A stretch of 64,000 nt of DNA from a virus (Duplodnaviria > Heunggongvirae > Uroviricota > Caudoviricetes). How positions within the stretch are numbered: position 1 is the first letter of the stretch; the number at the start of each line of letters is the position of its first letter. Positions 1,343-42,789 of this stretch are shown one piece after another. The notes under the pieces are model-generated. The model made no database searches. It had not been told where the DNA came from and worked only from the letters and a program-made list of their open reading frames with translations. The stretch lies in the IMG/VR virus record IMGVR_UViG_2721755676_000001. One strand, 5' to 3'. Both the position numbers and the translations under genes were made by a program.

Positions 1343-1397
1343 CCTGCTTCTGTATATATAAATAATAAGTAACTTATTAAATATATACGGAAGCAGG
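1343..1397. repeat. 55-bp near-palindromic element, copy 1 (17-bp inverted arms CCTGCTTCTGTATATAT / ATATATACGGAAGCAGG around AT-rich core AATAAGTAACTTATT)
   Basis: Read directly; near-identical second copy at 34357-34409. Confidence 0.8.
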
Positions 1398-1513: not shown

Positions 1514-2146
1514 ATGACGGTCGAAAAAGACGAGGTAAAAACTCGCCTGACACCAGCGGAGTGGGCCGAAGCTGAAGCCAAATGGACGTCAGGCGAATAT
1601 ACACTCTCAAAGCTGGAGGAAGAGTACGGCATTCGTCGTGAAACACTCTCCAGACATTTCAAAAAGCGAGGATTAGAGAAAGGCGCGGACTCTGTTGGGA
1701 AGATGGTTCGTGAGTCTCTTAAATCTGACGCAGAGCTTCGCGCTAAAGCCCGTGCGGAAAAGATAGAAGAACGTCGTACACGTTATGACGGCTGGGCGTA
1801 TGCGTTGGGGCAGATGGTGATGGTCGAAGTCACTACGGCCAAACGTGAGGGTAAGCCTTTAGGGGCGATTGAGGATTCTCTCAAGAGCTTACAGAGAGCC
1901 AGTAATACCCTTGCAAAATGCTTTGAAGTTTCGTCCAAAGCATTGGGCATGGATCATGCGGAAAATGACGAGGAAGAAATTCCGAACCTGGTATTTGGTG
2001 AGCTTACGCCTTCCCAGGTGGCGAAATTACGTCAGGAAGACGACGAGCCTGAAATCATCGATGACGAATTGCTTGAGACGTTGGAAGAAGAAGCTCTAAG
2101 CGAATTTGATGCGACAGATGATGGAAGTGAAGGGGAGGACGAATAA
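1514..2146 (+). CDS. putative terminase small subunit
   Basis: Immediately upstream of and stop-start overlapping the large terminase; acidic C-terminus; GAGGGA RBS; assignment by synteny only. Confidence 0.45.
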   Translation: MTVEKDEVKTRLTPAEWAEAEAKWTSGEYTLSKLEEEYGIRRETLSRHFKKRGLEKGADSVGKMVRESLKSDAELRAKARAEKIEERRTRYDGWAYALGQMVMVEVTTAKREGKPLGAIEDSLKSLQRASNTLAKCFEVSSKALGMDHAENDEEEIPNLVFGELTPSQVAKLRQEDDEPEIIDDELLETLEEEALSEFDATDDGSEGEDE

Positions 2147-3402
2147 TGGCAATCCCGTCCTCGCTCAGTCTTGTGCAACTGCATTCTGGACAGATGAAAG
2201 TCTTCCAGTCTCCGCATCGATTTAAAGTTGTTTGTGCTGGTCGACGCTGGGGAAAATCCCGGTTGTCGATCTCCACTATTATTCGTGCGGCGGCAAAGGA
2301 AAAAAAGCAAAGGGTCTGGTATGTCGCTCCTACTTACCAGATGGCTCGCCAGATTTTGTGGGACGATCTACAGGAAGTTCTGCCTCGTAAGTGGGTTAGG
2401 AAAAAGAACGACACCACGATGACAATCGTGTTGAAGAACGGTTCGGAGATCGCCCTCAAAGGTGCTGATAAGCCTGACACTCTGCGCGGCGTAGCGTTGC
2501 ATTTTGTAGTGCTTGATGAATTTCAGGATATGAAGGCTGACACCTGGTACAAGGTGTTACGACCTACTCTTTCATCGACACGCGGCGGTGCACTGATCAT
2601 TGGTACGCCAAAAGGCTTCTCGGAATTTCACAAACTGTGGACTATAGGCCAGAACGTAGAGCTGCAAAGAAAGGGACAGTGGAAGAGCTGGCAGTTTGTA
2701 ACTGCCGATTCTCCGTTTGTGCCTACGGCGGAAATTGAAGCTGCTAAGAACGATATGGACCCGAAATCGTTCGCTCAGGAGTACCTGGCGAGCTTTGAGA
2801 ACATGTCCGGGCGCGTTTACTACCCGTTCGATCGTAACGTGCATGTAAAACTGCTTCAGTTCAACCCTCGGTTGCCTATATGGGTAGGGCAGGACTTCAA
2901 CATTGACCCGATGTCTTCCGTAATTTTGCAACCTCAGCCAAATGGTGAGCTATGGGCAATTGATGAATTGGTGCTCTTTTCCTCTAACACGGCAGAAGTT
3001 TGTGATGAGCTTGAGAGACGCTTCTGGCGCTGGAAATCACAGGTAACGGTATTTCCAGATCCGGCAGGTGCTTATCGCCAACATGCTCGTGGGGAGTCTG
3101 ACGTAGACATATTCAAAGAGAAGGGATTCTTACGTGTCGATTATTCGAAAAAGCACCCGCCAATTGCGGATCGTGTTAATGCTGTTAACCGAATGCTGAT
3201 GTCCGCATCTGGAGATATCCGGCTGTATATCGATCCGAAGTGCAAGCATTTGATTGATTCACTGGAAAAAGTCATCTACAAGCCTGGAACACGAGATATG
3301 GATAAGACAGGTGGCATTGAGCATAGTGCAGACGCATTGGGCTATCCAGTACATCGTAGGTATCCAGTCAAAAACCGTGTTATTCTTGGTGGTTCTCGAT
3401 AG
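2146..3402 (+). CDS. terminase large subunit
   Basis: Walker A-like VVCAGRRWGKS and Walker B-like VVLDEF near N-terminus, nuclease-like C-terminal half; position before portal. Confidence 0.85.
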   Translation: MAIPSSLSLVQLHSGQMKVFQSPHRFKVVCAGRRWGKSRLSISTIIRAAAKEKKQRVWYVAPTYQMARQILWDDLQEVLPRKWVRKKNDTTMTIVLKNGSEIALKGADKPDTLRGVALHFVVLDEFQDMKADTWYKVLRPTLSSTRGGALIIGTPKGFSEFHKLWTIGQNVELQRKGQWKSWQFVTADSPFVPTAEIEAAKNDMDPKSFAQEYLASFENMSGRVYYPFDRNVHVKLLQFNPRLPIWVGQDFNIDPMSSVILQPQPNGELWAIDELVLFSSNTAEVCDELERRFWRWKSQVTVFPDPAGAYRQHARGESDVDIFKEKGFLRVDYSKKHPPIADRVNAVNRMLMSASGDIRLYIDPKCKHLIDSLEKVIYKPGTRDMDKTGGIEHSADALGYPVHRRYPVKNRVILGGSR

Positions 3403-5024: not shown

Positions 5025-5912
5025 ATGAATCTGTGGCAAATGCTTTTGGCCCGTCGTGGTCTGATGGATGTCGCTGAAGCGCATGAGCGTGGAGGCGCTG
5101 GCGGTGTAGCTGCTGATAATGAGCAGAGCACACAAGATCCTGACAAACAGGGTGAACAAAAAGAGCAGCCGAAGGGCGATGACGAATACGCTGGGATGAC
5201 TCAGGAAGAGTTACTGGCCGAACTTCGTAAAACCAAGAAAGCTGGTGCTGAACTGCTGAAGGAGAACATGAAGCGCAAAGAGAAAGAGCGCACATTGGCC
5301 GATCAGCTTGCTCAGTACGGTGATATCGACCCGGCGCGTGCTCGCCAGCTTTTAGAAGCTGAACAGGCCGCAGAAAATGCACGTCGTGAGGCGGAGCAAG
5401 CTGAACTGGAGCGTCGTGGTGAGTTCGATGCTGTTAAAAAACAGATGATCGAAGCACACCAGGCAGAGCTGGCACAGCGTGACGAACGTTATACAGCACT
5501 GGAAAGTGAAAACGCATCACTGAAATCTCAATTAGTCGAGATGACCGTGGGCGCTTCCTTCAGTAACTCTCTCTTCCTACGTGACAAAGTTCTGATGACC
5601 CCGGCAAAAGCCCGCGTGATCTACGGTTCTCATTTTGAAGTGGGTGAAGACGGTAGCGTAGTGGGTTATGACAAACCGGCAGGTCATAAAGAACGAGCTG
5701 TTCTGGTTGACGGTGAAGGTAAGCCGTTGCCGTTTGAATCCGCGATTGAACGCATTGTGCGGGCAGATCCGGAAGCTGACGCATTGATGCGTAGCGAAGC
5801 CAAGCAGGGTGTAGGCTCACATTCCAAATCGACCTACACAATATCCCAACCGAAGAACAAGTCGACTATGGATAAGTTGGCCTCCGGTCTGGGGAAAATT
5901 GGACTTAAGTAA
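5025..5912 (+). CDS. scaffolding protein (putative)
   Basis: Highly charged Ala/Glu/Gln-rich coiled-coil-like sequence between portal and capsid genes. Confidence 0.55.
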   Translation: MNLWQMLLARRGLMDVAEAHERGGAGGVAADNEQSTQDPDKQGEQKEQPKGDDEYAGMTQEELLAELRKTKKAGAELLKENMKRKEKERTLADQLAQYGDIDPARARQLLEAEQAAENARREAEQAELERRGEFDAVKKQMIEAHQAELAQRDERYTALESENASLKSQLVEMTVGASFSNSLFLRDKVLMTPAKARVIYGSHFEVGEDGSVVGYDKPAGHKERAVLVDGEGKPLPFESAIERIVRADPEADALMRSEAKQGVGSHSKSTYTISQPKNKSTMDKLASGLGKIGLK

Positions 5913-5937
5913 CATCTAAATCAAAGGGAATTGATAG

Positions 5938-6813
5938 ATGCCATTACTGCGTGAAGAAGCTGAAAAGCTGTCTAACAACGAACTTGAACAGGGTGTGATC
6001 GAAACTATCATCGATCGCGATGACCTGTTTGCCATCCTGCCTTTTATGAAAATTAATTCAAAGGCATATCTGTACAACCGTGAAAAAACGCTGAGCGAAG
6101 CTACTTTCATTGATGTGAACGACACCATCACCGAAGGTGCAGCAACCTTCGAAGAGAAAGTTGCGAAGCTGCGCATTCTGGCTGGCGACGTTGACGTCGA
6201 CAAATTCCTGGCTACCACTATGGCTGATACCAACAACCAGCTGGCTATCCAGGTTCGTCAGAAAGTCAAAGGTCTGGCTCGTGCCTTCCGTCGCAATCTG
6301 ATTGTTGGCGACTCCACCACTAACAACAAAGCCTTCGACGGTATTCCGAAGCTGATGCATGACGATCAGAAGATCGACATCTCCGGCGCATCCATGACTT
6401 TCTCTATGTTCGACGAACTGGTCGACGCAGTTAAAGATCTGGGCGCAGACTGCATCATGATGCGTTCTGAGCATCTTCGCGCATATCGTGCGCTGCTGCG
6501 AACTGTAAACGTAGGCCCGTCCGAAATCATGATGGAAAACTTCGGTCGACCAATGCTGTGCCATAACGGCGTTCCGTTTATCGTAAACGACTTCATCCCG
6601 ACCGATGCTGGCAAAGCAAGCATCTACTGCCTGCATCTGTCAGAAGAGAACGGCGTTACTGGTCTGTATGGCGGCGACAACGCAGGTATCGTTGTTGAAA
6701 ACATTGGTACTGTACAGAACAAAGACGCAGTACGTACCCGTGTGAAGTGGTACTGCTCTCTGGCGAATAAGCACGATAAGGCTATCGCTGCACTGACCAA
6801 TGTAAAAATTTAA
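5938..6813 (+). CDS. major capsid protein (putative)
   Basis: 291-aa ORF after scaffold, followed by strong intrinsic terminator; synteny. Confidence 0.65.
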   Translation: MPLLREEAEKLSNNELEQGVIETIIDRDDLFAILPFMKINSKAYLYNREKTLSEATFIDVNDTITEGAATFEEKVAKLRILAGDVDVDKFLATTMADTNNQLAIQVRQKVKGLARAFRRNLIVGDSTTNNKAFDGIPKLMHDDQKIDISGASMTFSMFDELVDAVKDLGADCIMMRSEHLRAYRALLRTVNVGPSEIMMENFGRPMLCHNGVPFIVNDFIPTDAGKASIYCLHLSEENGVTGLYGGDNAGIVVENIGTVQNKDAVRTRVKWYCSLANKHDKAIAALTNVKI

Positions 6814-6820
6814 TCAGTGT

Positions 6821-6840
6821 GGTAGATAAGTAATTATCTA
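6821..6840 (+). promoter_or_regulatory. junction motif GGTAGATAAGTAATTATCTA (perfect dyad TAGATAA-GTAA-TTATCTA)
   Basis: Read directly; TAG/TAA/TAA in three frames. Confidence 0.4.
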
Positions 6841-6847
6841 TGTTTAA

Positions 6848-6873
6848 GGGTGGGCTATACGCCCACCCTTTTT
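6848..6873 (+). terminator. intrinsic terminator (GGGTGGGC-TATAC-GCCCACCC + TTTTT)
   Basis: 8-bp GC-rich stem, 5-nt loop, T-run; directly after capsid gene. Confidence 0.75.
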
Positions 6874-6886
6874 GTAGGAGCAAGAA

Positions 6887-7807
6887 ATGCCAGAACAAAA
6901 GATGAAGATTACGGAAGAGGCATTTTCGGATTTTACGGGGCATATGTGCCGCGCCGGATTTACCAATTCTATCTCCGATGAACCTTTAACCGAGCGGCAA
7001 CAAAGTCAGCTATCTGCTTGTTTGCAGGCGGTTCCCTTCTCCCAATCCGTAAACATAACTCCGGCTTCACCATCAGTTTTGGTTGGGAAAACTGTTCAAC
7101 TTAGTGCAGGTATTAGTATGGGTAAGAGTGCCAGTTCATTCACCTGGAAGTCAGCCAATGATCAAATTGCAACCGTTAACGGCACTGGATTAGTAACTGG
7201 CGTAGCCCCAGGCAAAGTAAAAATTACTGCAACTGATCAGGAAACCCAGCTTTCCGCTTCAGTGGAAGTCACCGTAAATCCGGTAGCCGTTCAATCCGTA
7301 ACGGTAACGCCAGAATCAACGTCTGTTGAGAAAGGGAAATCAGTCAGTCTGAAAGCGAATGTTCAGCCGTCAAATGCGACGAATAAGGCTGTTACCTGGT
7401 CTTCCAAAAATGAAGATAAGGCAACGGTAGACCAGAGCGGGAACGTAACTGGTGTAGAAGTTGGCACTGCGACGATTGAGATCGTTTCCCAAGATGGTAG
7501 CAAAAAGGCAACTGCAACGGTGGAAGTAACTGCGCCTGTTGTGGCTGTTACAGGCGTCGAAATCGACCCAAATAGCACAACCGTTGAGGCAAACAAAACT
7601 GTTCAGCTGACCGCAAATGTCGAGCCGGCAGGAGCCACAAATAAAACCGTTACTTGGGAATCCAAAAATACCGAGTTTGCAACGGTGGACAGCGAAACCG
7701 GTGTTGTAACTGGTGTTGCGGCTGGCACTGCCACAATCGAGGTTACTACCCAAGATGGTAGCCACAAAGCGACAGCGACCGTAGAGGTCACTGCCGCACA
7801 GGAATAA
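6887..7807 (+). CDS. Ig-like (Big_2-type) repeat protein, probable head decoration/fibre
   Basis: Three tandem ~90-aa repeats ending in TVTGV..GTATIEV, characteristic of bacterial Ig-like group 2 domains. Confidence 0.7.
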   Translation: MPEQKMKITEEAFSDFTGHMCRAGFTNSISDEPLTERQQSQLSACLQAVPFSQSVNITPASPSVLVGKTVQLSAGISMGKSASSFTWKSANDQIATVNGTGLVTGVAPGKVKITATDQETQLSASVEVTVNPVAVQSVTVTPESTSVEKGKSVSLKANVQPSNATNKAVTWSSKNEDKATVDQSGNVTGVEVGTATIEIVSQDGSKKATATVEVTAPVVAVTGVEIDPNSTTVEANKTVQLTANVEPAGATNKTVTWESKNTEFATVDSETGVVTGVAAGTATIEVTTQDGSHKATATVEVTAAQE

Positions 7808-11592: not shown

Positions 11593-11672
11593 TTTCCCGC
11601 GATGAATCCGGGACAAGGACCGTCTCAATAGATCTCGGATTCTATTTCAGTCGTGTAGTTGCTCACTACGCC

Positions 11673-11942
11673 GTGTCGCCATTAGAGCTACTGAACGTTC
11701 CTCTCACGATGTTCTGGATGCTCAGTCGCAATATAGACCGTCTGCGTGCGGAAGAGGATGTCCGCAACTTACAAGTCGCTCGTGCGTCCCAGGCGGATGG
11801 CGAGGCTGTGAAGGCGTTCATGGAGGGTTTGCAACTCAGGATTGGAAGACCAGTCGTAACAGATAAAGTCTACGATCCAAGCCAGGATAAGGCAGACCCT
11901 GACGCCAAAGAGCAACTGATGCAAATATTTGGCAGAGGATGA
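11673..11942 (+). CDS. tail assembly chaperone frameshift extension (gpT-like; frame open from 11556)
   Basis: ORF in the -1 frame relative to the G-like gene; -1 frame is open from 11556 and overlaps the G gene's last 36 nt; ends just inside tape measure start. Confidence 0.5.
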   Translation: MSPLELLNVPLTMFWMLSRNIDRLRAEEDVRNLQVARASQADGEAVKAFMEGLQLRIGRPVVTDKVYDPSQDKADPDAKEQLMQIFGRG

Positions 11943-11949
11943 CAAGGGA

Positions 11950-14900
11950 ATGTCACAAAACGTAGAGTTTATCCTGTCGCTGGAAGACAAACAGTTTACA
12001 GCGTCAATCGATCGTGCGGGGAAACTGCTTACTCGATTTGGTGAGCAGGTAACAAAGCCTGCTCAAAAAATCCAAACCTTTGAACGCTCTTTGGGTTCGG
12101 TCGCCCGTATCATTGGCGTTCTGGAAAGCAAGCTCGATTCTACGGCAGATAAACTACAGGATGTAGCTGCCGGTTTTGAGCTTGCTTCAGATGCTACGCG
12201 TAAAATGCGTGGCAACATCACCAGCCTCAATTCTGGTCTTAAAGCCCTGATTGAGCGCGTCGATACGACAACTTCTTCAGTAGATAAACTCACCGCGTCA
12301 TTACGTAAAGTGCAATCAGAGCTAAATGATTTCTCTGATTGGGCGACCTATGCAAGCAAAAGCGCAAGCCGCTTTGGTACGGAGGTCAAAGAAGCCTCTG
12401 CGTCCGTGAGTGGCATGAATACGCGCCTTAATACCACGACGAAGCGACTCAGTAATTGGGGTGTCACAACGAGTCAGGCTGCCGAGGGACTGAAAAAGGT
12501 TCGTGAGCAGATGGACGAAGTTATCGGACGTCAGCAACTGATTAGCAAGCCGGTACGCGTTCGTACATCTGGAAGTGGCGATGGTGGCAGCGGGCGGCGT
12601 AGCGGCTCTGGCCATAGCGATAAAAGTAACGAAGGAGGTATGTTCTCTGGCCTTCGTGGCAACATTTTCCTGCTTGGCGAGATCGGAGATGCAGCCAGAA
12701 CGGTTACTGACATCATGTTTGGGTGGCAGAAGCCTATTGTTGAAGCTGCGGCCGAAATGGAACGTATGCGGGTGATGCTTCGAGGGTTGAATAAGGAGAA
12801 GTCCAACCCGGGCCAGGCTGCCGCTGATGATATGAAGTACATCGTAGACATGGCTCAAAATGCGCCGTTCGCGATGCAGGCGTTAACAGATTCCTTCGTG
12901 AAGTTTCGTTCTGCTGGCTTAGATCCAACCGATGGCTCTCTGAAGGCGCTGGTGGACTCCGTTGCTCGTTTTGGTGGTGATAGTGAGCTGTTGAAACGTG
13001 CGGCTGTGGCCGTTCAGCAGATGTCCGGTAAGGGCGTCGTGTCAATGGAAGAGCTACGTCAGCAATTAGGTGAAGCCGTTCCTAACGCGATGCAGGCAAT
13101 GGCAGACGCCGCAGGCATCACTATGGGGGAACTGACTAAAGCCGTTGCCAGCGGTACGGTTGAGGCAAAACAGGCGTTGTCTCTGATGTTTGTTGGTCTG
13201 CGTGCGGAGAATGAGAACGCAGCGAAAGACATGATGCAAACCTACACAGGTGCGCTGGCGCAACTTCAGACGTCATTCACGTTATTTGCTGATCGGGTTG
13301 GTCAGGCCGGATATCTGGATTCTCTATCGAAGGGGATGAAAGAACTGGCTTCAATCATGAATAGCGCCGAAGGGATTTCGTTTGCCAATTCTTTAGGTTC
13401 GGGGTTAACAACGGCAATCGATGGGTTGCGTCAGCTTGCTCAATGGTTAGCAAAGAACCAAGAGCTGGTAATTAATCTCGGTAAGGTCGTGGCCGCGATG
13501 GTTGCGTTCAAACTGATGCGAGCATGGATCATGGGGGTAGTTGGCGCTGGGAGCCAGATGGTTAGCACCTTTGCCACGATGGCGACCGCCATACAGACTC
13601 CATTTAACCTCGGCGCTACAGCAGTAACTCGATTCAATCGTGCGGCACGTATGGGGCTGGCTCCGATCCCCTCTCTTATTTTCGCCATCCGTGGGGCGAT
13701 TACGGGGCTTAAAGGCGCTTTTGCTGGCCTGACTGCGTTTATTGCGGCGAATCCGATAGGTTTTGTTTTCACTGCTGCAATGACCGCTGTTGCTGGCTTA
13801 ATCACGTATATGACCATGCTTCGTAGCGAAACTTCAAAGGTCGTTGACGAGATTAGGAAAATACCAGAAGCGATGACGGCGGCTAAACGTGCACAGATGG
13901 CCGAGTATAAAGCGCGTCTTGAGCAACAAATCACGCAAAAGGAACAAGAGTTAAAATCTGGCGAAAAGGTGGTTTATGGGCCGGGTATGGCCGGAACTAC
14001 AGTAAAGATTAATCATGATGAACGTAAGCGAATAGAAAATGAGCTAAATGAACTTCGTAAGAAACGCGATAAAACCAATGAAACTATTGCCAGAGGGGAT
14101 TTGGCTGTAGCCAAACGTCTGGCAAAAGAGACGGCAGAATCCCAGATAGAGAAAATACTCGAAGAGAATAGAGACTTTGCGGCAACGTTCGTGAAAGCTC
14201 GTCAGGAGGCTCTGGAGAAAATCCAGAAAATCAAGGATGACGGTTCACTTTCGGATGACGAAAAGAACAAGCTATTGGCACCGTTACGTGAAACGGTAAA
14301 CAAAAGCTATCTGGAGCCTGCGCAAAAACTGGTTGATTCACTTTCTTCTCGTAAGAATGCGACCGAGAAGCAAATCGCGACTCTTAATGATCAGCTTGAA
14401 AAAGCGAAAAAGGAAGGAAATACCGAGCAGATTCAGAAACTGCAAGGAAGTATTCGTGGCTATCAGGAGCATTTGGAAGTCGTTGCTCAGGAACTGACTC
14501 AGGCAGAGTTTAAGAGGGATAACGCGGCCAAAAGTGGTAATGGCTTAGTGTCAATCAATGGAGATGTTCTGGGGTTAGGTACAACTGATAAAGCTGCTCA
14601 GAAGGCGCTGGCGCAATATATGCGAAACCAGATGGATTCTGCGACTTATCAGCGTACTTTGCCTGACGGCACTCCGATGATGGACTTCGAAGGTAAGCCG
14701 ATTATTGGGCCTAAACAACTCAAGACGCAGCTTAATTTGCAGAAAGCATCCAGCGCCAGCTCTCTGGAGAAAATGAGCGATGAAGAGCGTGCCGCAGCCA
14801 TTGCTGCACTAACTAAAGCTCGTGAACAGGATGCAGCAGCTGCCGAGAAAGCAGCCCAACGATCAGCTAACGCCTCGCAGCGTGCGGCCAAGAAGGAACA

Positions 14901-31070: not shown

Positions 31071-31490
31071 ATGCTAAATTATCATGACAATACGCGTTCT
31101 ATGCAGACGATCCGCACCAATACTGCGGTCATCGACAGCTTTCCTATGCGTATTCACAACAGTGAAGACGCAGTAGAAGTGCGACGTATGTTGTGCCGTG
31201 AATCAGCTAACCGCCAGCACTTCATCGTCACTTTTAAGAGCGATGTGGCGCGTGCCGAAAAGATCTCTAATTCTACGTCACTGGTTAAACCGTTGGCCGA
31301 GGTTGTCGCTAACGGTAAACGAACCTCTTTTGTTTTAGATGTTGCTGAACAATATCCTGACTTGAAGTGTTTAGATCGTGATATTTCTTCACGAATCAAA
31401 CAAGTTGTAGAGTCTTTTATGAAGAAATTCTGTAAAATCGATGATATGGAACCATCAACGGCACAGAATACTTCATGGCACCATCTCTAA
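31071..31490 (+). CDS. hypothetical protein (first gene of two-gene cargo operon)
   Basis: AAGGTGGA RBS; preceded by 220-bp AT-rich non-coding region. Confidence 0.5.
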   Translation: MLNYHDNTRSMQTIRTNTAVIDSFPMRIHNSEDAVEVRRMLCRESANRQHFIVTFKSDVARAEKISNSTSLVKPLAEVVANGKRTSFVLDVAEQYPDLKCLDRDISSRIKQVVESFMKKFCKIDDMEPSTAQNTSWHHL

Positions 31491-32248
31491 TTGGTCAGGC
31501 GAACAGATTAATCCCTGAAATAGAAGACTACAGCAAGGTCTTGTCTGAAATGCCGAGAGCGACGAGAATTATCGCTCTCGGTGAGTTCTATTTTATCTCC
31601 CGAGGTTTCGATCTAATTCGATTTACCGAATACGAGCTTGTTGATTCGGCCTATGAACGCTGTATTGTTGGCGAGTGTCTTGAGTCATGTGATCCTGATT
31701 ACCAAGAGCAGGAAGTTAAGCGACTCAAACGTGCTGGTTACACACCTCTTGAGATAGGAGCAGAAATTGAATCCTACAAGTTGCATGTGGGGCAGCCAGT
31801 CCAAACAGTCTTCCGCGTGGCCTACTGCGAGTTTCCAATCAAGGATAAATCTGGAGTAAAAGTCAGCGCCAAGCAGATTAGAGGGGTTTTTACTCATGCT
31901 GATTATATGGGATTAGGCATCGCAAGTTTTGCTTACCTTTATCTCGTAGATAAGTATCAGTACTTGGTTTGCGATACGTTACAGACGGTAAAAGGCGCAA
32001 CTCTTTGGGCTGTGAGTATGCGCAAACATGGACTGGTCGAAATTTACGATACGAAGAACGAAAATTTTATAGAGGAATTGGGTGAGGATGCCTGTGGCGT
32101 AAGTGGTTTTATTCCGTGGGATATCGGTAAGTCTGACGGAGGCCAGATGCGAAGACGTGAAGAGTGGGGGACTAATAAAATCAATCTCACCCCAGGTGCT
32201 TGTACTCATATAGTGAACATTCTGACTAAACGATCTATGAATCAATAA
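31475..32248 (+). CDS. hypothetical protein, possible GNAT-like fold
   Basis: Overlaps upstream gene by 16 nt; segment IRGVFTHADYMGLGIASFAYLYLV weakly GNAT-like; followed by intrinsic terminator. Confidence 0.45.
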   Translation: MAPSLIGQANRLIPEIEDYSKVLSEMPRATRIIALGEFYFISRGFDLIRFTEYELVDSAYERCIVGECLESCDPDYQEQEVKRLKRAGYTPLEIGAEIESYKLHVGQPVQTVFRVAYCEFPIKDKSGVKVSAKQIRGVFTHADYMGLGIASFAYLYLVDKYQYLVCDTLQTVKGATLWAVSMRKHGLVEIYDTKNENFIEELGEDACGVSGFIPWDIGKSDGGQMRRREEWGTNKINLTPGACTHIVNILTKRSMNQ

Positions 32249-32249
32249 A

Positions 32250-32269
32250 CCCGCTACGGCGGGTTTTTT
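32250..32269 (+). terminator. intrinsic terminator (CCCGC-TACG-GCGGG + TTTTTT)
   Basis: GC stem plus 6-T run immediately after stop at 32248. Confidence 0.7.
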
Positions 32270-32397
32270 GTTATTAAGCCCCCCCTATGTACCTATCATT
32301 AAACCTTTACACCGCAGCCGTAGGCATTTAGGCTATATCACATATAAGAAAACAAGTTGTTTCAGACGATAATTATATACGCAAAGGGAACTCTCCA

Positions 32398-33066
32398 ATG
32401 ACCAAGATCTTTGTGGTTGGCGGCACAAAGGGCGGGCCTGGCAAATCCACCGTTGCCCAGCAAATTGCCGTTTGCCTGAAAGTCAAAAAGAAGAAGAAGG
32501 TTTATATTACCGATATAGATATTCAGCGCACGACAACGAGCTGGTGTGAAGACCGTCGACAGAACGAAGACCTTGAGCTGATTCCTTTTGCATACGTTCA
32601 GGATGACATCATTAAGCACCTAAAATCGCTTCAGGGTAGAGCTGAGTTTGTAGTGGTAGATGCTGGTGGCTTCGACTCCGAAATTCAGCGACAAGCGATG
32701 CTGATGGCTGACGTTATCATTATCCCGCTGCGTCCTAAGCGTCGTGATTTGAAATCTTTACGTGACATCGATCCTATTATCGACAATGTTCGCAATGTAA
32801 ACGATAAAGTGAAGGTCCGCGCGGTCATGAACCAGTGCCCGGCTTTGCCATCACAAGTGTCTCGCATTCTGGCGGCTAAAGAGATTGTTGAGACGTTTGG
32901 AATCGAGTCTGCGCCAGTCAATCTATATAACCGCAACGTCTATGATGATGCGGAAGAGTCTGGTCGTTCTATCTTTGAAATGACCGGTAGCGAGCGCGAC
33001 AAAAAGGCGGAAGCCGAGTTTGAAGAATTTGTAGATTATCTGTTGAGTCTGGAGGAAGAAGAATAA
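32398..33066 (+). CDS. ParA/MinD-family partition ATPase (small type Ib-like)
   Basis: Deviant Walker A GGTKGGPGKST at N-terminus; 222 aa without N-terminal HTH; AAAGGGA RBS. Confidence 0.8.
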   Translation: MTKIFVVGGTKGGPGKSTVAQQIAVCLKVKKKKKVYITDIDIQRTTTSWCEDRRQNEDLELIPFAYVQDDIIKHLKSLQGRAEFVVVDAGGFDSEIQRQAMLMADVIIIPLRPKRRDLKSLRDIDPIIDNVRNVNDKVKVRAVMNQCPALPSQVSRILAAKEIVETFGIESAPVNLYNRNVYDDAEESGRSIFEMTGSERDKKAEAEFEEFVDYLLSLEEEE

Positions 33067-33425
33067 TGTCCATGAAAATGGGTGACCTAGCAAAGCGCAA
33101 AGAGCCTGATGCACCGGCTAAGAACACAACTCCTTTGCGCCAACCAGTCAGACCACAGGGACGCCCGACTCGTGGCAAAGAGAAAATTAAAAGCCGCACA
33201 ATGTCACTGGAGGACGAATACTTCGAACTGCTGGAGATGATGAAGTTCATCCCTCGCTTCGAGAAGTTCACTCGTTCTGACGTGATTCGAGCAGCCATTT
33301 TCCATCTGGCAGAGAAGTCACCGCAGGAAATCGAGGACATCGTGAAATTGAATGAGGCGATCACCGCTGCCGATGTCACGATGCGTACCGATGAAATCAA
33401 ACGAGAGTTGATGAAGAAAGGTTAA
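33066..33425 (+). CDS. small ParA partner protein (putative ParG/ParB-like centromere-binding protein)
   Basis: 119-aa basic protein translationally coupled (TAATG) to the ParA-like gene; role inferred from synteny. Confidence 0.45.
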   Translation: MSMKMGDLAKRKEPDAPAKNTTPLRQPVRPQGRPTRGKEKIKSRTMSLEDEYFELLEMMKFIPRFEKFTRSDVIRAAIFHLAEKSPQEIEDIVKLNEAITAADVTMRTDEIKRELMKKG

Positions 33426-33430
33426 AAATC

Positions 33431-33461
33431 ATGCATTGGCGCGTACATTGCGCCAATGCAT
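33431..33461. terminator. 12-bp perfect stem-loop (ATGCATTGGCGC-GTACATT-GCGCCAATGCAT) between convergent genes; possible bidirectional terminator
   Basis: Read directly; no strong T-run. Confidence 0.45.
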
Positions 33462-33477
33462 AACTACAGTGTCAGCT

Positions 33478-34245
33478 TTATGCCGCGCTAACACTATGTT
33501 CAGTCCTAACCACCCCAACCTTCACAAAAGGGCTACCGTAGCTTGGTGGCTTCTTGATTAATTTGCCTACATACAGTTTTCTAATATGCTCATCGGCTAT
33601 TCTGCCAACAAATTCATAACGTTTTGTGTCGGGGCCAAGAGCTATATCCCTTGTAAAGTACTGCTGAGAACCGGCTTTGACCCAGCATTCAATCTGATAA
33701 ACTTCCATTATCAGCCCACCATATGTAGCGTAGGCATATTTGAGATTCTCGTCTCTTGGAACCTTTGCCCATACGCCACGCGTAGCTTCATATAATGCCA
33801 GAGCGGACATTCCTGACTTGTAGGTGCTGTTTAGCAGGAAGGCAAGACCGGCGTGCTCAGGAGCAATTTCAGTTTCCTCTTGCAGCACTAAGTGATGGTA
33901 GGCGTCCAGTGATATTCTGCCCATCATGGAACCACTTCCTCGTACCTTATTCGTAAGCTCTCCGACCCCCATAAGGTCGATGCATGTCGCCTCAACAAGT
34001 TTGGCTGTGGTTTCATCCATACCATGACGAAGTATATCTATGCCTAATTTTTTATTAGCCAAAAGTTCTTTGATCCGCATGGATTTGGGAGAGTCATCGG
34101 GATACTTGATGTGATCGAGACAACGAGTCGATTTGCCTTTTCCTATGTAAAACGGTCTTTTCATCTTGTCTTCTGTATCATAGAGACAGTAAACATAGTA
34201 TTTAGCCTTATCCAATGATCTCGCGTATACCGATAAATCGTCCAT
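33478..34245 (-). CDS. GIY-YIG domain endonuclease (homing-endonuclease-like)
   Basis: N-terminal YYVYCLYD...PFYIGKGK matches GIY-x10-YIG; lone minus-strand gene among plus-strand genes. Confidence 0.75.
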   Translation of the reverse strand: MDDLSVYARSLDKAKYYVYCLYDTEDKMKRPFYIGKGKSTRCLDHIKYPDDSPKSMRIKELLANKKLGIDILRHGMDETTAKLVEATCIDLMGVGELTNKVRGSGSMMGRISLDAYHHLVLQEETEIAPEHAGLAFLLNSTYKSGMSALALYEATRGVWAKVPRDENLKYAYATYGGLIMEVYQIECWVKAGSQQYFTRDIALGPDTKRYEFVGRIADEHIRKLYVGKLIKKPPSYGSPFVKVGVVRTEHSVSAA

Positions 34246-34356
34246 TATTGCATCTCTTTGCTACTGACTAATGCGTTCTATTTTACACATAAGTTTTTAA
34301 TCAATTTAACAGGCTCAAAGTGTAGAGCTTCTGGGCGTCTAAGACGACAAGTTATG

Positions 34357-34409
34357 CCTGCTTCTGTATATAAATAATAAGTAACTTATTAAATATATAC
34401 GGAAGCAGG
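34357..34409. repeat. 53-bp near-palindromic element, copy 2 (identical to 1343-1397 except one TA unit)
   Basis: Read directly; lies in divergent intergenic region before replication module. Confidence 0.8.
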
Positions 34410-34492
34410 TCTTTTAAAAGACACCACCAGAACAACTCCCTTCCGTTTCCACTTCCAAAAACTGCCACCAGTCGCTATCATCCGCTCATTGT

Positions 34493-34510
34493 GATAAGTA
34501 AGTAACTACC
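34493..34510 (+). promoter_or_regulatory. junction motif GATAAGTAAGTAACTACC
   Basis: Read directly; TAA in three frames; 16 nt upstream of ATG 34526. Confidence 0.4.
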
Positions 34511-34525
34511 AACTAGGTGAGCCAC

Positions 34526-35266
34526 ATGAGCCAAATCTTTTTCGATACCATCGACAACGACCAGTACGACTTCATGACAGAGTGGAATACCGCTGTTATG
34601 GACAAGTGGGTCGCTGAAAACATTGGTTTGTCGCGCTGTAAAGACGAGGCTGAACTCTTCGAGACGAAGTGGTTTGATTACCGCGACATGCATCCTCTCA
34701 TGGCCACCTGTCTTTTTACGGAGGCATACAAACGTCAGTACTCAAATATCATGCTGACGCACGGTCGCGAACACTTTGAAACAGCTCCGTTCACCACCGG
34801 GTTAAAACGCCTGCCTTATCAGGAGTTGTCGACTGCCAATAAAACGTCGCTATGGAAAGCACGCCAGTTTGCGGATCGCTATTGCTGCTCATACGACTAC
34901 TTTATCTCCACCGTTCTTTCCGCAGCTGCACGACGGCTGTGGGACAAGCTGCCGCGCCCACAGCATTTATGGCAGCCAGAACTGATTGAGATATTTGAAG
35001 AGAAATTAGCCAGACGCGCAACAACCCGTCTGGATGACTCTCTGGTTAGCTTTAAGCATATGGGAGACATGCAGTTCAACCCGATTCAGGAAAGCTATTT
35101 TGAGTGGATTCTGGAGCGTTTGCGCACCATCCCTCGCAGCAAGCGCATACGCGCAATTTTCTCCGCTATCTGGCTAATGGAAATCGTTCCAGAGCGCCTT
35201 ATTTCCGCCCACTTTCCAGAAGAACTGGAAGAAGCACGGCGGTTTATTGATCCCCTATCTAATTAA
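34526..35266 (+). CDS. hypothetical protein (first gene of replication module)
   Basis: ATG 34526 with AGGTGA 5 nt upstream (track ORF begins at GTG 34517). Confidence 0.55.
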   Translation: MSQIFFDTIDNDQYDFMTEWNTAVMDKWVAENIGLSRCKDEAELFETKWFDYRDMHPLMATCLFTEAYKRQYSNIMLTHGREHFETAPFTTGLKRLPYQELSTANKTSLWKARQFADRYCCSYDYFISTVLSAAARRLWDKLPRPQHLWQPELIEIFEEKLARRATTRLDDSLVSFKHMGDMQFNPIQESYFEWILERLRTIPRSKRIRAIFSAIWLMEIVPERLISAHFPEELEEARRFIDPLSN

Positions 35267-35309
35267 CTAATACTAGAAAACAATTTGTTTAAAAAACAAA
35301 GGAAAGCAC

Positions 35310-36650
35310 ATGACCGAACTTTGCCATACAGGACGCGGGCTGTCCGAAGAGTTTGATGAAGATTTCCAGAACAGACTGACGGCATATTTTTGTCGTGATC
35401 ACGAGTTTCTTACTCGTGCGGGAGATCTGGTTGTGCCTAGCCAATTTGCCAATGCGGCCAATGCCATATTGGTTAATATGGTTTCGGGCTATTACCGTAT
35501 GTACAAGAGCGCGCCCTCTTCATCTGCAATTCTGGATATGCTTAAGCGTGCGAAACGCGATAAGACTATCCGTGAGGAACTATTCGCCGATGTTGTTGCT
35601 GCGTTTAAGCGCATTCTTGCAGAAAAATTGTCCGATACCTCGTACATGGTTGACCAGGTATCAACCTTCGCAAAAAGTGTAGCGTTTGATGATGCTCTGA
35701 TTAAGGCTGCTGAACTGAAAGAGAAAGGCGACTTTCACGGGGCGATGGCAATCATGGCCAAGGTTCAGCAGATTGGATCGAACGAAGCGACCGGAATCTA
35801 TGACTACTACACCTCCGCAAGTGAGCGATTGAAAGCGCGTGAATATGAGGCTTCAGAGGAGTATGTACCAAACAGTATTACAACTGGACTCCCTCTTCTC
35901 GATAGGTTGCTGTACCAAAAAGGCTGGGCAAAGCGCGAAATGGTGCTCTTCATGGGGTTCGCTAAATCCGGTAAATCGACCGCAATGGGTGAGTTTTCCA
36001 TAAACGCAACACTTGCTGGCTACAATGTTCTGTATCTCTCGCTGGAGGTTCACACCACCATTTTATCCGACCGTTTTGATGCAAGATTGTCGGAGACGGA
36101 AATGTCCAAGCTGGTGGAACGGCGCGATGAGGTTCATCGTAAGTTGGCAGAGTTGGGAGCCACGAAGGGGATTGGTAGTTTGTGGGTGGTTGAGCGTCCG
36201 TCAGGAAGTATGTCACCGGCAGATCTGGACCGTATGCTTAACAGCATGAAAGCCAATGGCATGGTGCCTGACATGGTTGTTGTCGACTACGCAGATTTGA
36301 TGCGTGCCAGTTATGATCTTCGTGATGATCGCGCCAACATTCGTAGTATCTACACCGATTTACGTGCTCTTTATGACAAGCATAACGTTGCTGGGATCAC
36401 GGCATCGCAGACAAACCGTGAAGGTGGCGCGTCAGAAGTTGCCACAATGATGCACGCTGCCGACAACATCGAAAAAGTACGTATTGCTGACCTGGTAATA
36501 ACGATCAACAAAACCGAAGAAGAAGAAGCGAAAGGAGAGGCTCGTCTCTACTTTGCTGGTTCACGTAACCAGCAGGGAGGGATCAGCATTCGCGTTAAAC
36601 AAAACCTCGAACAAATGCGCTTCATTGAGCGAATCTTAGACGTTACCTAA
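35310..36650 (+). CDS. replicative DNA helicase (DnaB-like)
   Basis: Walker A MGFAKSGKST and Walker B VVVDYADLM in C-terminal RecA-like domain; AAAGGAAAG RBS. Confidence 0.8.
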   Translation: MTELCHTGRGLSEEFDEDFQNRLTAYFCRDHEFLTRAGDLVVPSQFANAANAILVNMVSGYYRMYKSAPSSSAILDMLKRAKRDKTIREELFADVVAAFKRILAEKLSDTSYMVDQVSTFAKSVAFDDALIKAAELKEKGDFHGAMAIMAKVQQIGSNEATGIYDYYTSASERLKAREYEASEEYVPNSITTGLPLLDRLLYQKGWAKREMVLFMGFAKSGKSTAMGEFSINATLAGYNVLYLSLEVHTTILSDRFDARLSETEMSKLVERRDEVHRKLAELGATKGIGSLWVVERPSGSMSPADLDRMLNSMKANGMVPDMVVVDYADLMRASYDLRDDRANIRSIYTDLRALYDKHNVAGITASQTNREGGASEVATMMHAADNIEKVRIADLVITINKTEEEEAKGEARLYFAGSRNQQGGISIRVKQNLEQMRFIERILDVT

Positions 36651-36655
36651 AAAAT

Positions 36656-36680
36656 AAGCGTGGAGAACACCTCCACGCTT
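36656..36680 (+). other. 10-bp stem-loop (AAGCGTGGAG-AACAC-CTCCACGCTT) right after helicase stop
   Basis: Read directly; contains the GTG that the ORF track uses as primase start. Confidence 0.4.
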
Positions 36681-36731
36681 GATTCATTGGTGAAACAACT
36701 TTTCTTTTGCCAAACCACAAAAGAAAAACAC

Positions 36732-37913
36732 ATGAGCCTTTATGTTATATCAACATTTAGGTTGGTCACAATATTGCCTGTTAAAAGTGGAATTATCGTG
36801 AGCGAGCTGAAAGAGCTAATTACCGAATTAGATTTTGAACAATGGTTGGATACTGAAGGTATCGTTTATCGACGTGGAGGCGTGAGTACTCGCGGTCGTG
36901 AAGTGAATATCAAGGAGTGTCCGGTATGTGGCAGCTCCAACTGGAAGGTATATTTCAATCTGACCAGTGGCGTCGGTAAATGCTTCGCTGGTGATCATCC
37001 CGAAGAGATTCAGTTCAATAAGCTGGTCTTCCTCAAGCACTACAGCGGCAAATCACGACGACAGTTCGAGGAATATGTGCAGAACGCCCTTCTTTCCCAG
37101 GGGTGGGCACCAAAGAAAGAAGAGCTAGTGCTTGCAAGCACAGTCGAGTTAGAGGGGCCAGTTGCACTCCCTCGTCATTACGAGCTTCCTATAGATGGCC
37201 GTCTTCCAGACTATCTGGTTGAACGAAACATATCGCCTGAAATGGCAAAGTATTTTGACCTACGATACTGCGTCGAAGGCAAGTACGCCTATGTAGATCC
37301 GTATACAGATCAGGTTAAAGGACAGATATTCGATATGCGAATACTGATACCGGTTTACGATCTGGATGGGGTAATGAAGACATTTCAGGGACGAGACATT
37401 ACCGGTACAGCAGAACGCCGCTACCTCTTTCCTATGCAACTTCCAGCTTCAGGTAAGTTTCTCTACAACGGCCATAATGCAGTCGGCAAACAGACTGTAG
37501 TTGTCTGTGAGGGGGCGTTCGATGTTATGGGGGTTAAACGAGCTATTTTTGACGAAGAAACATTACGTGATTACGTGGAACCAATAGGAACGTTCGGGAT
37601 GCATCTATCTGGTAACACCACTCAGGATGCAGAAGATCAGTTAGGCGCGTTCCTGACGCTCAAGGCGCGTGGGTTACGTAATGTGATCATGATGTGGGAT
37701 AGTGAAAAGCAAGCTATACGCAACACTATGGCCGCAGCCAGGCGACTGACCAGTATCGGTCTTAATGTCAAAGTTGCGTGTTTGGGTGAGGAAGGACTCG
37801 ACCCGGGCGGTGCAACGCCAGAACAAATTATCAAAGCCTATTATCGGGCAAAACCGTATACCAAACAGTTGGAGTTGCAAAGCAAGGTTTTGGGCATTAA
37901 GGCTCTATCATAA
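36732..37913 (+). CDS. DNA primase (zinc-finger plus TOPRIM)
   Basis: Zn-ribbon CPVCGSSNWKV...GKCFAGDH; TOPRIM-like VVVCEGAFDVMG and MMWDSEKQA; start uncertain (36732 ATG or 36798 GTG). Confidence 0.7.
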   Translation: MSLYVISTFRLVTILPVKSGIIVSELKELITELDFEQWLDTEGIVYRRGGVSTRGREVNIKECPVCGSSNWKVYFNLTSGVGKCFAGDHPEEIQFNKLVFLKHYSGKSRRQFEEYVQNALLSQGWAPKKEELVLASTVELEGPVALPRHYELPIDGRLPDYLVERNISPEMAKYFDLRYCVEGKYAYVDPYTDQVKGQIFDMRILIPVYDLDGVMKTFQGRDITGTAERRYLFPMQLPASGKFLYNGHNAVGKQTVVVCEGAFDVMGVKRAIFDEETLRDYVEPIGTFGMHLSGNTTQDAEDQLGAFLTLKARGLRNVIMMWDSEKQAIRNTMAAARRLTSIGLNVKVACLGEEGLDPGGATPEQIIKAYYRAKPYTKQLELQSKVLGIKALS

Positions 37914-42054: not shown

Positions 42055-42126
42055 GATGGTGTAGCTCAGCGGTAGAGCAGTTGGCTGTTAACCAACTGGT
42101 CGGTGGTTCGAATCCACCCACCATCG
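42055..42126 (+). tRNA. tRNA-Asn (anticodon GTT)
   Basis: Cloverleaf folded by hand: acceptor GATGGTG/CACCATC, anticodon loop CTGTTAA, T-arm GGTGG-TTCGAAT-CCACC, discriminator G then CCA. Confidence 0.85.
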
Positions 42127-42134
42127 CCAATTTA

Positions 42135-42218
42135 GGGGAGTTAGTCCGTAGGGGCAGCGGAGTAGACTGTAAATCTACTGTCATGGCGACTCGGGTGGTT
42201 CGACTCCATCACTCCCCA
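42135..42218 (+). tRNA. tRNA-Tyr (anticodon GTA), long variable arm
   Basis: Acceptor GGGGAGT/ACTCCCC, anticodon stem GTAGA/TCTAC with loop CTGTAAA, long variable arm, TTCGACT T-loop, CCA encoded. Confidence 0.8.
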
Positions 42219-42225
42219 CCAAATT

Positions 42226-42298
42226 GCCGGTTTAGCTCAGTTGGTAGAGCGCCTGCCTTGTAAGCAGGATGTCAGCGGTTCGAGTCCGCTAACCGGCA
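42226..42298 (+). tRNA. tRNA-Thr (anticodon TGT)
   Basis: Acceptor GCCGGTT/AACCGGC, D-arm GCTC-AGTTGGTA-GAGC, anticodon loop CTTGTAA, T-arm AGCGG-TTCGAGT-CCGCT, CCA encoded. Confidence 0.85.
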
Positions 42299-42525
42299 CC
42301 AATACAACGATAAGATCATTACGGTTAATCGTCGTTCATGTGCACAATGACTGGTCGAAAGGTAGTGATCTTACCGTTGTGGTGGATTCGCAGACTGATG
42401 CGATAGCTTTCTTGGATGTTAGGGAAATGCGGCCGCAAATCTTCCCTTTCGCGAGCGGTGATCGTCCGTAGTCCTAATTGGCTGCACCGTATGCCGGAGA
42501 TTCAGTACCGGCCACCACAACGGCC

Positions 42526-42609
42526 GGAGAGTAGGGAGCATGGTGCTCAAGCGGTCTTGAAAACCGTCCCATTGCGCAAGCGATGATGGTTCGATTCCAT
42601 TACTCTCCG
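42526..42609 (+). tRNA. tRNA-Ser (anticodon TGA), long variable arm
   Basis: Acceptor GGAGAGT/ACTCTCC, anticodon loop CTTGAAA, long variable arm, T-loop TTCGATT, discriminator G, CCA encoded. Confidence 0.7.
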
Positions 42610-42789
42610 CCAGACACAGCGTTGAGCGGTTTGGCCTTTTAATCACCCAGATTAAGACTCCGCTAACATAAACCAGACCGCTCAACGCTGTGATAGACAA
42701 TTACGGCAGACGTTCTTAACCATAGCTTGCTAACATCCTAGCAACACTTTTTTCAGCGCAAAATTCAAAGGGGCTTCGGCCCCTTTTTG

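Follow-up and report, generated by a model that had tools for sequence, protein, structure and literature searches.

A probable type IV restriction endonuclease gene in an SSU5-like phage-plasmid

Based on homology that extends over two domains, a minus-strand gene (33478..34245; ATG start, 255 aa) in the 64,000-nucleotide viral DNA analyzed here (IMG/VR record IMGVR_UViG_2721755676_000001; hereafter, the window) most likely encodes a divergent member of the PD-T4-3/CMoRE family, i.e., a modification-dependent (type IV) anti-phage restriction endonuclease. Judging from its matches and gene content, the window is part of an SSU5-like temperate phage-plasmid of Escherichia coli: the 3.1 kb around the nuclease gene are 99.5% identical to Escherichia phage CMS-2020a, the flanks of the gene match the phages Cyrano and SSU5, 736 plasmid records from Enterobacteriaceae (mostly non-mobilisable, ~105–115 kb) match the 3.1-kb region, and the window also codes for a large terminase (2146..3402), a DNA ligase, an integrase, and a tRNA cluster. 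The gene sits in a polymorphic slot between the partition and replication genes, and its cassette has been exchanged between diverged backbones.

The family assignment was consistent across the searches that gave a specific answer. In the PADLOC library, the only match was PD-T4-3 (PDLC04031; E = 1.3e-23, 81.9 bits), with residues 11–231 of the protein aligned to positions 11–238 of the 256-position model (~88% of both). A sequence search of the Protein Data Bank (PDB) returned only 9U7U/9U7Z and 9U75/9U8D, with an E-value of 2e-15 for the single sequence that rose in significance to 3.8e-23 with a profile of 39 homologues; the alignment to 9U7U/9U75 covers residues ~10–232, including both domains, and the pairwise identity to CMoRE is 32%. 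General-purpose libraries were less informative: Pfam gave a marginal match to LEM-3_GIY-YIG only (30.1 bits against a cut-off of 27), PHROGs gave only phrog_5356 (a family of ‘unknown function’), and no NCBIfam family matched the nuclease protein. PD-T4-3/CMoRE, first found in E. coli ECOR68 and represented by the structures 9U7U and 9U75, is a type IV enzyme that degrades DNA containing 5-hydroxymethylcytosine (5hmC) or glucosyl-5-hydroxymethylcytosine (5ghmC) and spares unmodified DNA; it protects E. coli against T2, T4, and T6 directly, not by abortive infection (PMC12923530). PD-T4-3 is also active in a native E. coli host (bioRxiv 10.1101/2024.12.20.629700).

The catalytic residues are retained. 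Among the 39 homologues (50–79% identity) that formed the conservation set, Y17, Y19, Y33-I34-G35, R41, H45, E85, N99, and many C-terminal positions are invariant (39 of 39), and the mean column identity of the subfamily is 59%. Y17/Y19/Y33, R41, and E85 align with Y17/Y19/Y31 and the catalytic Arg and Glu of CMoRE, which has a ‘GIYxY-YIG’ motif with a third tyrosine. The original prediction described the N-terminus as a canonical GIY-x10-YIG; the GIY-YIG nuclease domain is indeed there, but a literal GIY is absent, and the stretch reads K-Y-Y17-V-Y19-C-L-Y22-x10-Y33-I-G35, i.e., the motif is C-L-Y22...YIG. CMoRE needs to form a tetramer (dimer of dimers) with the interface residues V92 and L96 (PMC12923530); V92 aligns with V84, which is conserved in the subfamily, and L96 aligns with C88, an invariant cysteine.

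The C-terminal domain (aa ~110–243; 33517..33918, minus strand) is homologous to the modification-sensing domain of CMoRE, to which its ~140 residues align, and its predicted fold resembles that of PUA-like readers (ASCH/EVE/YTH); it is a predicted reader of modified bases. A further segment of the open reading frame (ORF) lies on the N-terminal side of this domain (33934..34212, minus strand). A GIY-YIG nuclease and a modification-sensing domain are thus combined in a single polypeptide, as in CMoRE. Superposition of the whole predicted model on 9U75 is poor (template modeling score ~0.36, root-mean-square deviation 16–18 Å) because the relative placement of the two domains differs in the model, and it is the per-domain match that carries weight.

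Between two plasmid alleles of the nuclease gene, four changes are synonymous and one is non-synonymous. Against homologues of 53–78% protein identity, synonymous divergence (dS) is saturated, and non-synonymous divergence (dN) is only 0.16–0.38 in both domains. The saturated dS, low dN, and mostly synonymous allele differences demonstrate that the gene is under purifying selection.

Several points weigh against a simple transfer of function from CMoRE. The acidic lid of the nuclease is five residues shorter (Y48-P-D-D-S-P-K vs. G-E-V-A-A-V-D-D-D-E-L-L) and holds two Asp, compared to four acidic residues (DDDE) in the 15-residue insert of CMoRE; across the subfamily this stretch contains 1–3 scattered acidic residues and is not consistently acidic, and the model shows a loop of only five residues between helices 41–47 and 53–63. 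In CMoRE, the autoinhibitory loop of ~15 residues lies between helices 2 and 3 and occurs in ‘most’ members, i.e., it is not universal (PMC12923530). Because the acidic lid that keeps CMoRE off unmodified DNA is not retained, self-protection and specificity may differ from those of CMoRE. Likewise, Y127 of CMoRE, the main chain of which contacts 5hmC, falls in a poorly aligned linker, and the function of the subfamily is deduced from 27–32% identity to the characterized enzymes. Expression is a further point: the AT-rich region upstream of the gene (34246..34356, minus strand; 111 bp, 36% GC), which presumably holds the promoter and is 97–99% identical across diverged backbones, contains a -10-like TAAAAT and a weak ribosome-binding site, and a promoter/terminator scan of 33000–34700 found no consensus sigma-70 promoter. 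Finally, clade J SSU5 phage-plasmids of E. coli and Shigella carry PD-T4-3 and PD-T7-5 according to a survey of clinical isolates (bioRxiv 10.1101/2025.09.12.675607). That its PD-T4-3 calls correspond to this very gene is suggested by a partial Shigella sonnei protein that is 100% identical to the nuclease; the calls could not be traced to public accessions, as the supplement gives read-run identifiers only.

These differences raise the question of which modification is recognized. If the protein is a restriction endonuclease, we slightly favor the 5hmC/5ghmC specificity of the published enzymes. A protein of the same fold and defence role could instead respond to a modification other than 5hmC or 5ghmC, or to a broader range; candidates include arabinosyl-hydroxymethylcytosine, the adenine modification by Mu mom, and other hypermodified bases. 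The identity of only 32% to CMoRE, the shorter and less acidic lid, and the tight conservation within the subfamily, including its many invariant C-terminal residues, would fit such a different trigger, as would a PD-T4-3 homologue (48% identity) that requires modified DNA and cuts Mu DNA in addition to T4 DNA (PMC12366544). There is, however, no positive pointer to another substrate, the C-terminal architecture aligns end to end with that of CMoRE, and T-even DNA is a substrate for the E. coli, Klebsiella, and Capnocytophaga members alike (PMC12923530, PMC12366544). We therefore consider a different trigger rather unlikely.

If it works like the solved enzymes, the proposed type IV nuclease would use its C-terminal reader to bind modified bases in incoming DNA; in characterized members these are the 5hmC and 5ghmC of T-even phages. 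The N-terminal GIY-YIG domain would then cut the modified DNA, and the unmodified DNA of the host and of the phage-plasmid would be spared, so that no methylase partner would be needed. In this way the gene would protect its host. The original prediction had hinted at an anti-phage role, and hostility to other phages does appear to be the likely function, although by a different route from the one proposed there.

A cargo slot between the partition and replication genes

To delimit the element that carries the nuclease gene, the window was compared to relatives with other cargo or none. Homology to these relatives is lost beyond 33423, at the stop codon of the ParA partner gene, and picks up again at 34357, where a palindrome begins; the variable cassette therefore comprises 933 bp (33424..34356) and consists of a hairpin, the nuclease ORF, and the 111-bp upstream region. 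The conserved left flank (32398..33425, plus strand) encodes a ParA ATPase (32398..33066) and its 119-aa partner (33066..33425), and the conserved right flank (34517..37913, plus strand) is a replication module made up of a phrog_2500 protein (34517..35266), a DnaB-like helicase (35310..36650), and a primase (36660..37913). The nuclease gene is convergent with the ParA pair and divergent from the replication module.

The flanks are present in 263 of 5,426 complete E. coli genomes and are always plasmid-borne. The nuclease cassette was found in 105–106 of these 263 plasmids (~40%), and in one of the others (NZ_CP148383.1) the slot is essentially empty, with 30 bp from the stop codon to the palindrome. 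The comparison across relatives that the original prediction had called for thus shows that its GIY-YIG nuclease gene is accessory at this site, not universally conserved.

The same comparison bears on a housekeeping role, under which the protein would be a structure-specific or repair nuclease (UvrC- or Slx1-like) that serves the replication module of the phage-plasmid and not defence. The gene lies directly upstream of the helicase and primase genes, and its GIY-YIG domain resembles those of UvrC and Slx1. However, ~60% of the closely related E. coli phage-plasmids lack the gene and still replicate, its transcription points away from the replication genes, defence-type genes replace it in the same slot, and its full-length homology is to a restriction enzyme. 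A housekeeping function is therefore extremely improbable compared to a role in restriction.

The slot accommodates at least seven unrelated cargoes, which lie in either orientation and share its sharp borders. These include a DUF2971 protein (PADLOC candidate PDC-S31) in Cyrano and others, DUF2971 together with a PD-T7-5 homologue (E = 1.4e-139), and a KAP-family NTPase (PDC-S49). Further cargoes have no Pfam or PADLOC match: a 357-aa protein (L015 1385–2458, minus strand), a 225-aa protein (L016 1363–2040, minus strand), and a pair of 250 and 140 aa (L017 1376–2543, plus strand). SSU5 itself carries three other genes, including two of 214 and 136 aa (L002 2623–3667, plus strand) that likewise lack Pfam and PADLOC matches. 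Because their slot neighbours are PD-T4-3-like, PD-T7-5, DUF2971/PDC-S31, and KAP NTPase/PDC-S49 genes, the unmatched cargoes (357, 225, 250 + 140, and 214 + 136 aa) are candidates for undescribed defence genes. The survey of clinical isolates mentioned above fits PD-T4-3 and PD-T7-5 as alternative alleles of one slot.

Cassettes have moved recently between backbones. In three plasmids the cassette is 98–100% identical to that of the window though the flanks are only 77–89% identical, demonstrating recent exchange of the cassette between diverged backbones, and the mobility that the original prediction had ascribed to the gene is in this sense real. In the same plasmids, identity in the left flank is 90–96% over ~200 bp, and on the right side it drops right after the palindrome. 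The left junctions open with hairpins of unrelated sequence immediately behind the stop codon, the right junctions have no sequence in common ahead of the palindrome, and no shared core motif (integron attC-like or transposon-like) was found at the cassette ends in the compared junctions. What travels is a 933-bp cassette in which the gene is accompanied by its own upstream region and a probable terminator hairpin; the simplest, and most likely, route of exchange would be homologous recombination in the conserved flanks.

Independent movement of the cassette into other plasmids was considered and rejected for one copy outside the usual backbone. In a 141-kb fimbrial/CFA-III-type plasmid (NZ_CP062900.1, L004), a 1.6-kb fragment (5647–7198) between IS3- and IS30-family elements spans the nuclease cassette plus the ParA partner gene on one side and the start of the following gene on the other, i.e., it is a fragment of the phage-plasmid between insertion sequence (IS) elements.

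A slot in which defence genes are swapped is an ordinary arrangement for a phage-plasmid. A more specific proposal is that the slot is a dedicated exchange site for single-gene, hairpin-led defence cassettes that move by a mechanism beyond general homologous recombination, and that the nuclease forms a separate CMoRE branch in which the PUA-like reader and the truncated lid give another base specificity or another self/non-self safeguard; we consider this combination unlikely. In the literature searched, the parA-replication slot of SSU5-like phage-plasmids was not found described, and no paper was found on SSU5 together with GIY-YIG.

Comparison with a homing endonuclease

The original prediction took the gene for a free-standing GIY-YIG homing endonuclease, which would cut the gene-less allele, be copied in by repair, and possibly exclude the markers of co-infecting relatives. 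Variable presence at a single site, with an empty allele among the variants, would be compatible with homing, and the excess of cassette identity (98–100%) over flank identity (77–89%), together with the 90–96% identity over ~200 bp of left flank, would fit a co-conversion tract. Nevertheless, the protein and its site both differ from those of homing enzymes. The protein shares homology in its C-terminal half with the modification-sensing domain of CMoRE, and neither Pfam nor NCBIfam revealed a NUMOD, zinc-finger, or helix-turn-helix module; the similarity of the GIY-YIG domain to I-TevI is no better than that to UvrC or T4 EndoII. The homologues (50–79% identity) are single chromosomal genes in non-phage contexts: they were found among cellular genes in Providencia, Shewanella, and one further bacterial genome of ~6.4 Mb, and one of them adjoins genes with RelA/SpoT domains, a helicase gene, and transposase genes. 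Further homologues lie on unrelated plasmids beside a toxin-antitoxin pair.

The slot itself also argues against homing. Most ‘absent’ alleles hold one of the other cargoes with identical borders, therefore the polymorphism is a property of the slot (a cargo hotspot) and not of the nuclease gene, and the structures that flank the gene are a probable terminator and a backbone palindrome (see below). On this evidence, homing is very unlikely, and we interpret the gene as a restriction endonuclease gene carried as slot cargo.

Hairpin and palindrome at the cassette borders

The original prediction had the gene bracketed by a 12-bp perfect stem-loop (33431–33461) and a palindrome copy (34357–34409), and both structures are real. 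The 12-nt arms of the hairpin are 100% complementary around a 7-nt loop, and its folding energies are -22.3 (plus strand; z = -3.8) and -25.1 kcal/mol (minus strand; z = -5.1), with none of 200 shuffles folding as well; the palindrome folds at -30 kcal/mol (z = -8.0). As a description of position, the bracketing is correct, but it does not delimit a mobile unit. Of the two structures, only the hairpin is particular to the cassette; the palindrome is part of the backbone and also occurs in relatives without the gene.

For the hairpin, intrinsic termination of the nuclease transcript is the most plausible role. The whole element (33427..33465, minus strand) consists of the stem-loop with its 12-bp perfect core followed by GATTTTT; in the minus-strand transcript, the stem extends to 16 bp and is followed by a U run. 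It sits between convergent stop codons (33425 and 33478) and probably also stops read-through from the convergent parA operon. The scan of 33000–34700 did not flag the hairpin, the T-run being two bases past the minus-strand limit of the rule, and the terminator call therefore rests on folding. Every other cargo allele (L001, L003, L015–L019) has its own GC-rich perfect hairpin of 8–13 bp and unrelated sequence at this place, immediately behind the stop codon that ends the partition operon, in any cargo orientation. The hairpin loop (33443–33449) reads GTACATT in the window and appears as the reverse complement, AATGTAC, in L006 and L009 (~4137–4143); these cassette alleles are otherwise 98–100% identical, therefore the loop has flipped between the inverted arms.

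The palindrome (34357..34409) forms the right border of the slot and has 16-nt arms (CCTGCTTCYGTATATA) around an AT-rich centre. It is present in Cyrano, SSU5, and the empty-site plasmid, whatever the cargo. Where the slot is empty, it comes directly after the partition operon, whose natural terminator it probably is. A second, near-identical copy (1343..1397) lies ahead of the terminase/morphogenesis genes, and the 16-nt arm has four matches in the window compared to 0.38 expected by chance. The complete genome of PhiR41_1 (L020/L021) holds three copies (13435, 45582, and 75115), all intergenic after plus-strand genes, and two of the three are followed by a T-run. Situated at module boundaries, the copies may act as strong terminators or bind a regulator. 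A family of such ~53-bp palindromes, with conserved arms and a variable AT-rich centre and with three copies per genome, is conserved in SSU5-like phages of Escherichia, Salmonella, and Klebsiella.

Neighbouring genes and other features of the window

A script that listed minus-strand ORFs of at least 50 aa outside plus-strand genes identified 33478..34245 as the sole credible minus-strand ORF from position 1 to ~40,700; two others (51 and 73 aa, at 11666–11990) are doubtful. The gene is thus the only one on its strand, as the original prediction had stated, in a plus-strand block that measures ~40 kb instead of 30 kb. The gap at 40.6–45.1 kb holds several small minus-strand ORFs and a cluster of four plus-strand tRNA genes (42055–42612): Asn-GTT, Tyr-GTA, Thr-TGT, and Ser-TGA.

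The ParA ATPase matches MipZ, AAA_31, and CbiA in Pfam and the ParA-like phrog_164. Its 119-aa partner matches phrog_5111 and shows a faint NCBIfam ribbon-helix-helix match (aCcr1, E = 2e-4, residues 54–79); it is probably a ribbon-helix-helix centromere-binding protein, which would fit a ParG-like role. The Cyrano record labels the counterpart of this partner a ‘RelE/ParE putative toxin’, a label that looks wrong. Another variable slot adjoins parA on its upstream side (window 31071–32290, compared with L001 480–1314 and L006 1979–2777), as homology to Cyrano begins only at 32291. It contains two ORFs of unknown function in the window (31071..31490 and 31475..32248) and a GNAT-toxin/antitoxin pair of the KacT/TacA type in Cyrano and several plasmids.

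Implications

The assignment corrects the annotation of a gene that RefSeq labels ‘LEM-3-like GIY-YIG domain-containing protein’ or ‘hypothetical’ and that is easily misread as a homing endonuclease. If it is right, a phage-plasmid with a probable anti-T-even restriction enzyme is present in ~2% of complete E. coli genomes (105–106 of 5,426), with relevance for host range in phage therapy and for the spread of defence genes among Escherichia, Shigella, and Salmonella. Conceptually, nothing in this is new; three modest points could be followed up, in that the slot may supply candidate defence genes, the lid is truncated, and the reader domain looks PUA-like. Slot alleles such as those of 357 aa, 225 aa, and 250 + 140 aa are cheap candidates for new defence systems, and the shortened lid is a natural variant that bears on how CMoRE-type enzymes avoid host DNA.

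Comparison with known systems

PD-T4-3/CMoRE is the closest known system. Both proteins are encoded by a single gene (~250 aa) on mobile elements of Enterobacteriaceae, have an N-terminal GIY-YIG domain with an extra tyrosine (Y-x-Y...YIG) and aligned catalytic Arg and Glu, and share a C-terminal domain that can be aligned to its end; CMoRE is the best match by hidden Markov model, sequence, and structure. The nuclease differs in belonging to a separate, well-conserved subfamily (phrog_5356; 27–32% identity), in its acidic loop (five residues shorter, two acidic residues instead of four), in a two-residue insert between Y-x-Y and YIG, and in the invariant Cys in place of L96.

Other type IV enzymes also join a reader (PUA-like/SRA-like) to a nuclease, including VcaM4I/TagI (HNH), PvuRts1I/AbaSI, McrBC, and GmrSD/BrxU. 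Their nucleases are of the HNH, PD-(D/E)XK, or DUF262/DUF1524 type, whereas the nuclease described here is of the GIY-YIG type; the sequences are not similar, and the folds, as judged from a predicted model, resemble each other moderately. The phage GIY-YIG homing enzymes (T4 SegA–G and I-TevI-like) share the catalytic domain, but the nuclease has a reader C-terminus and no extended linker or sequence-tolerant DNA-binding module, its homologues are cellular, and its site is a multi-cargo hotspot. In that last respect, the slot resembles the P2/P4-type defence hotspots and the accessory regions of phage-plasmids, in which a fixed site between backbone genes holds alternative defence systems of one or a few genes. 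It differs from the P2/P4-type hotspots in lying between a partition operon and a replication module, and in that each cassette opens with its own terminator hairpin.
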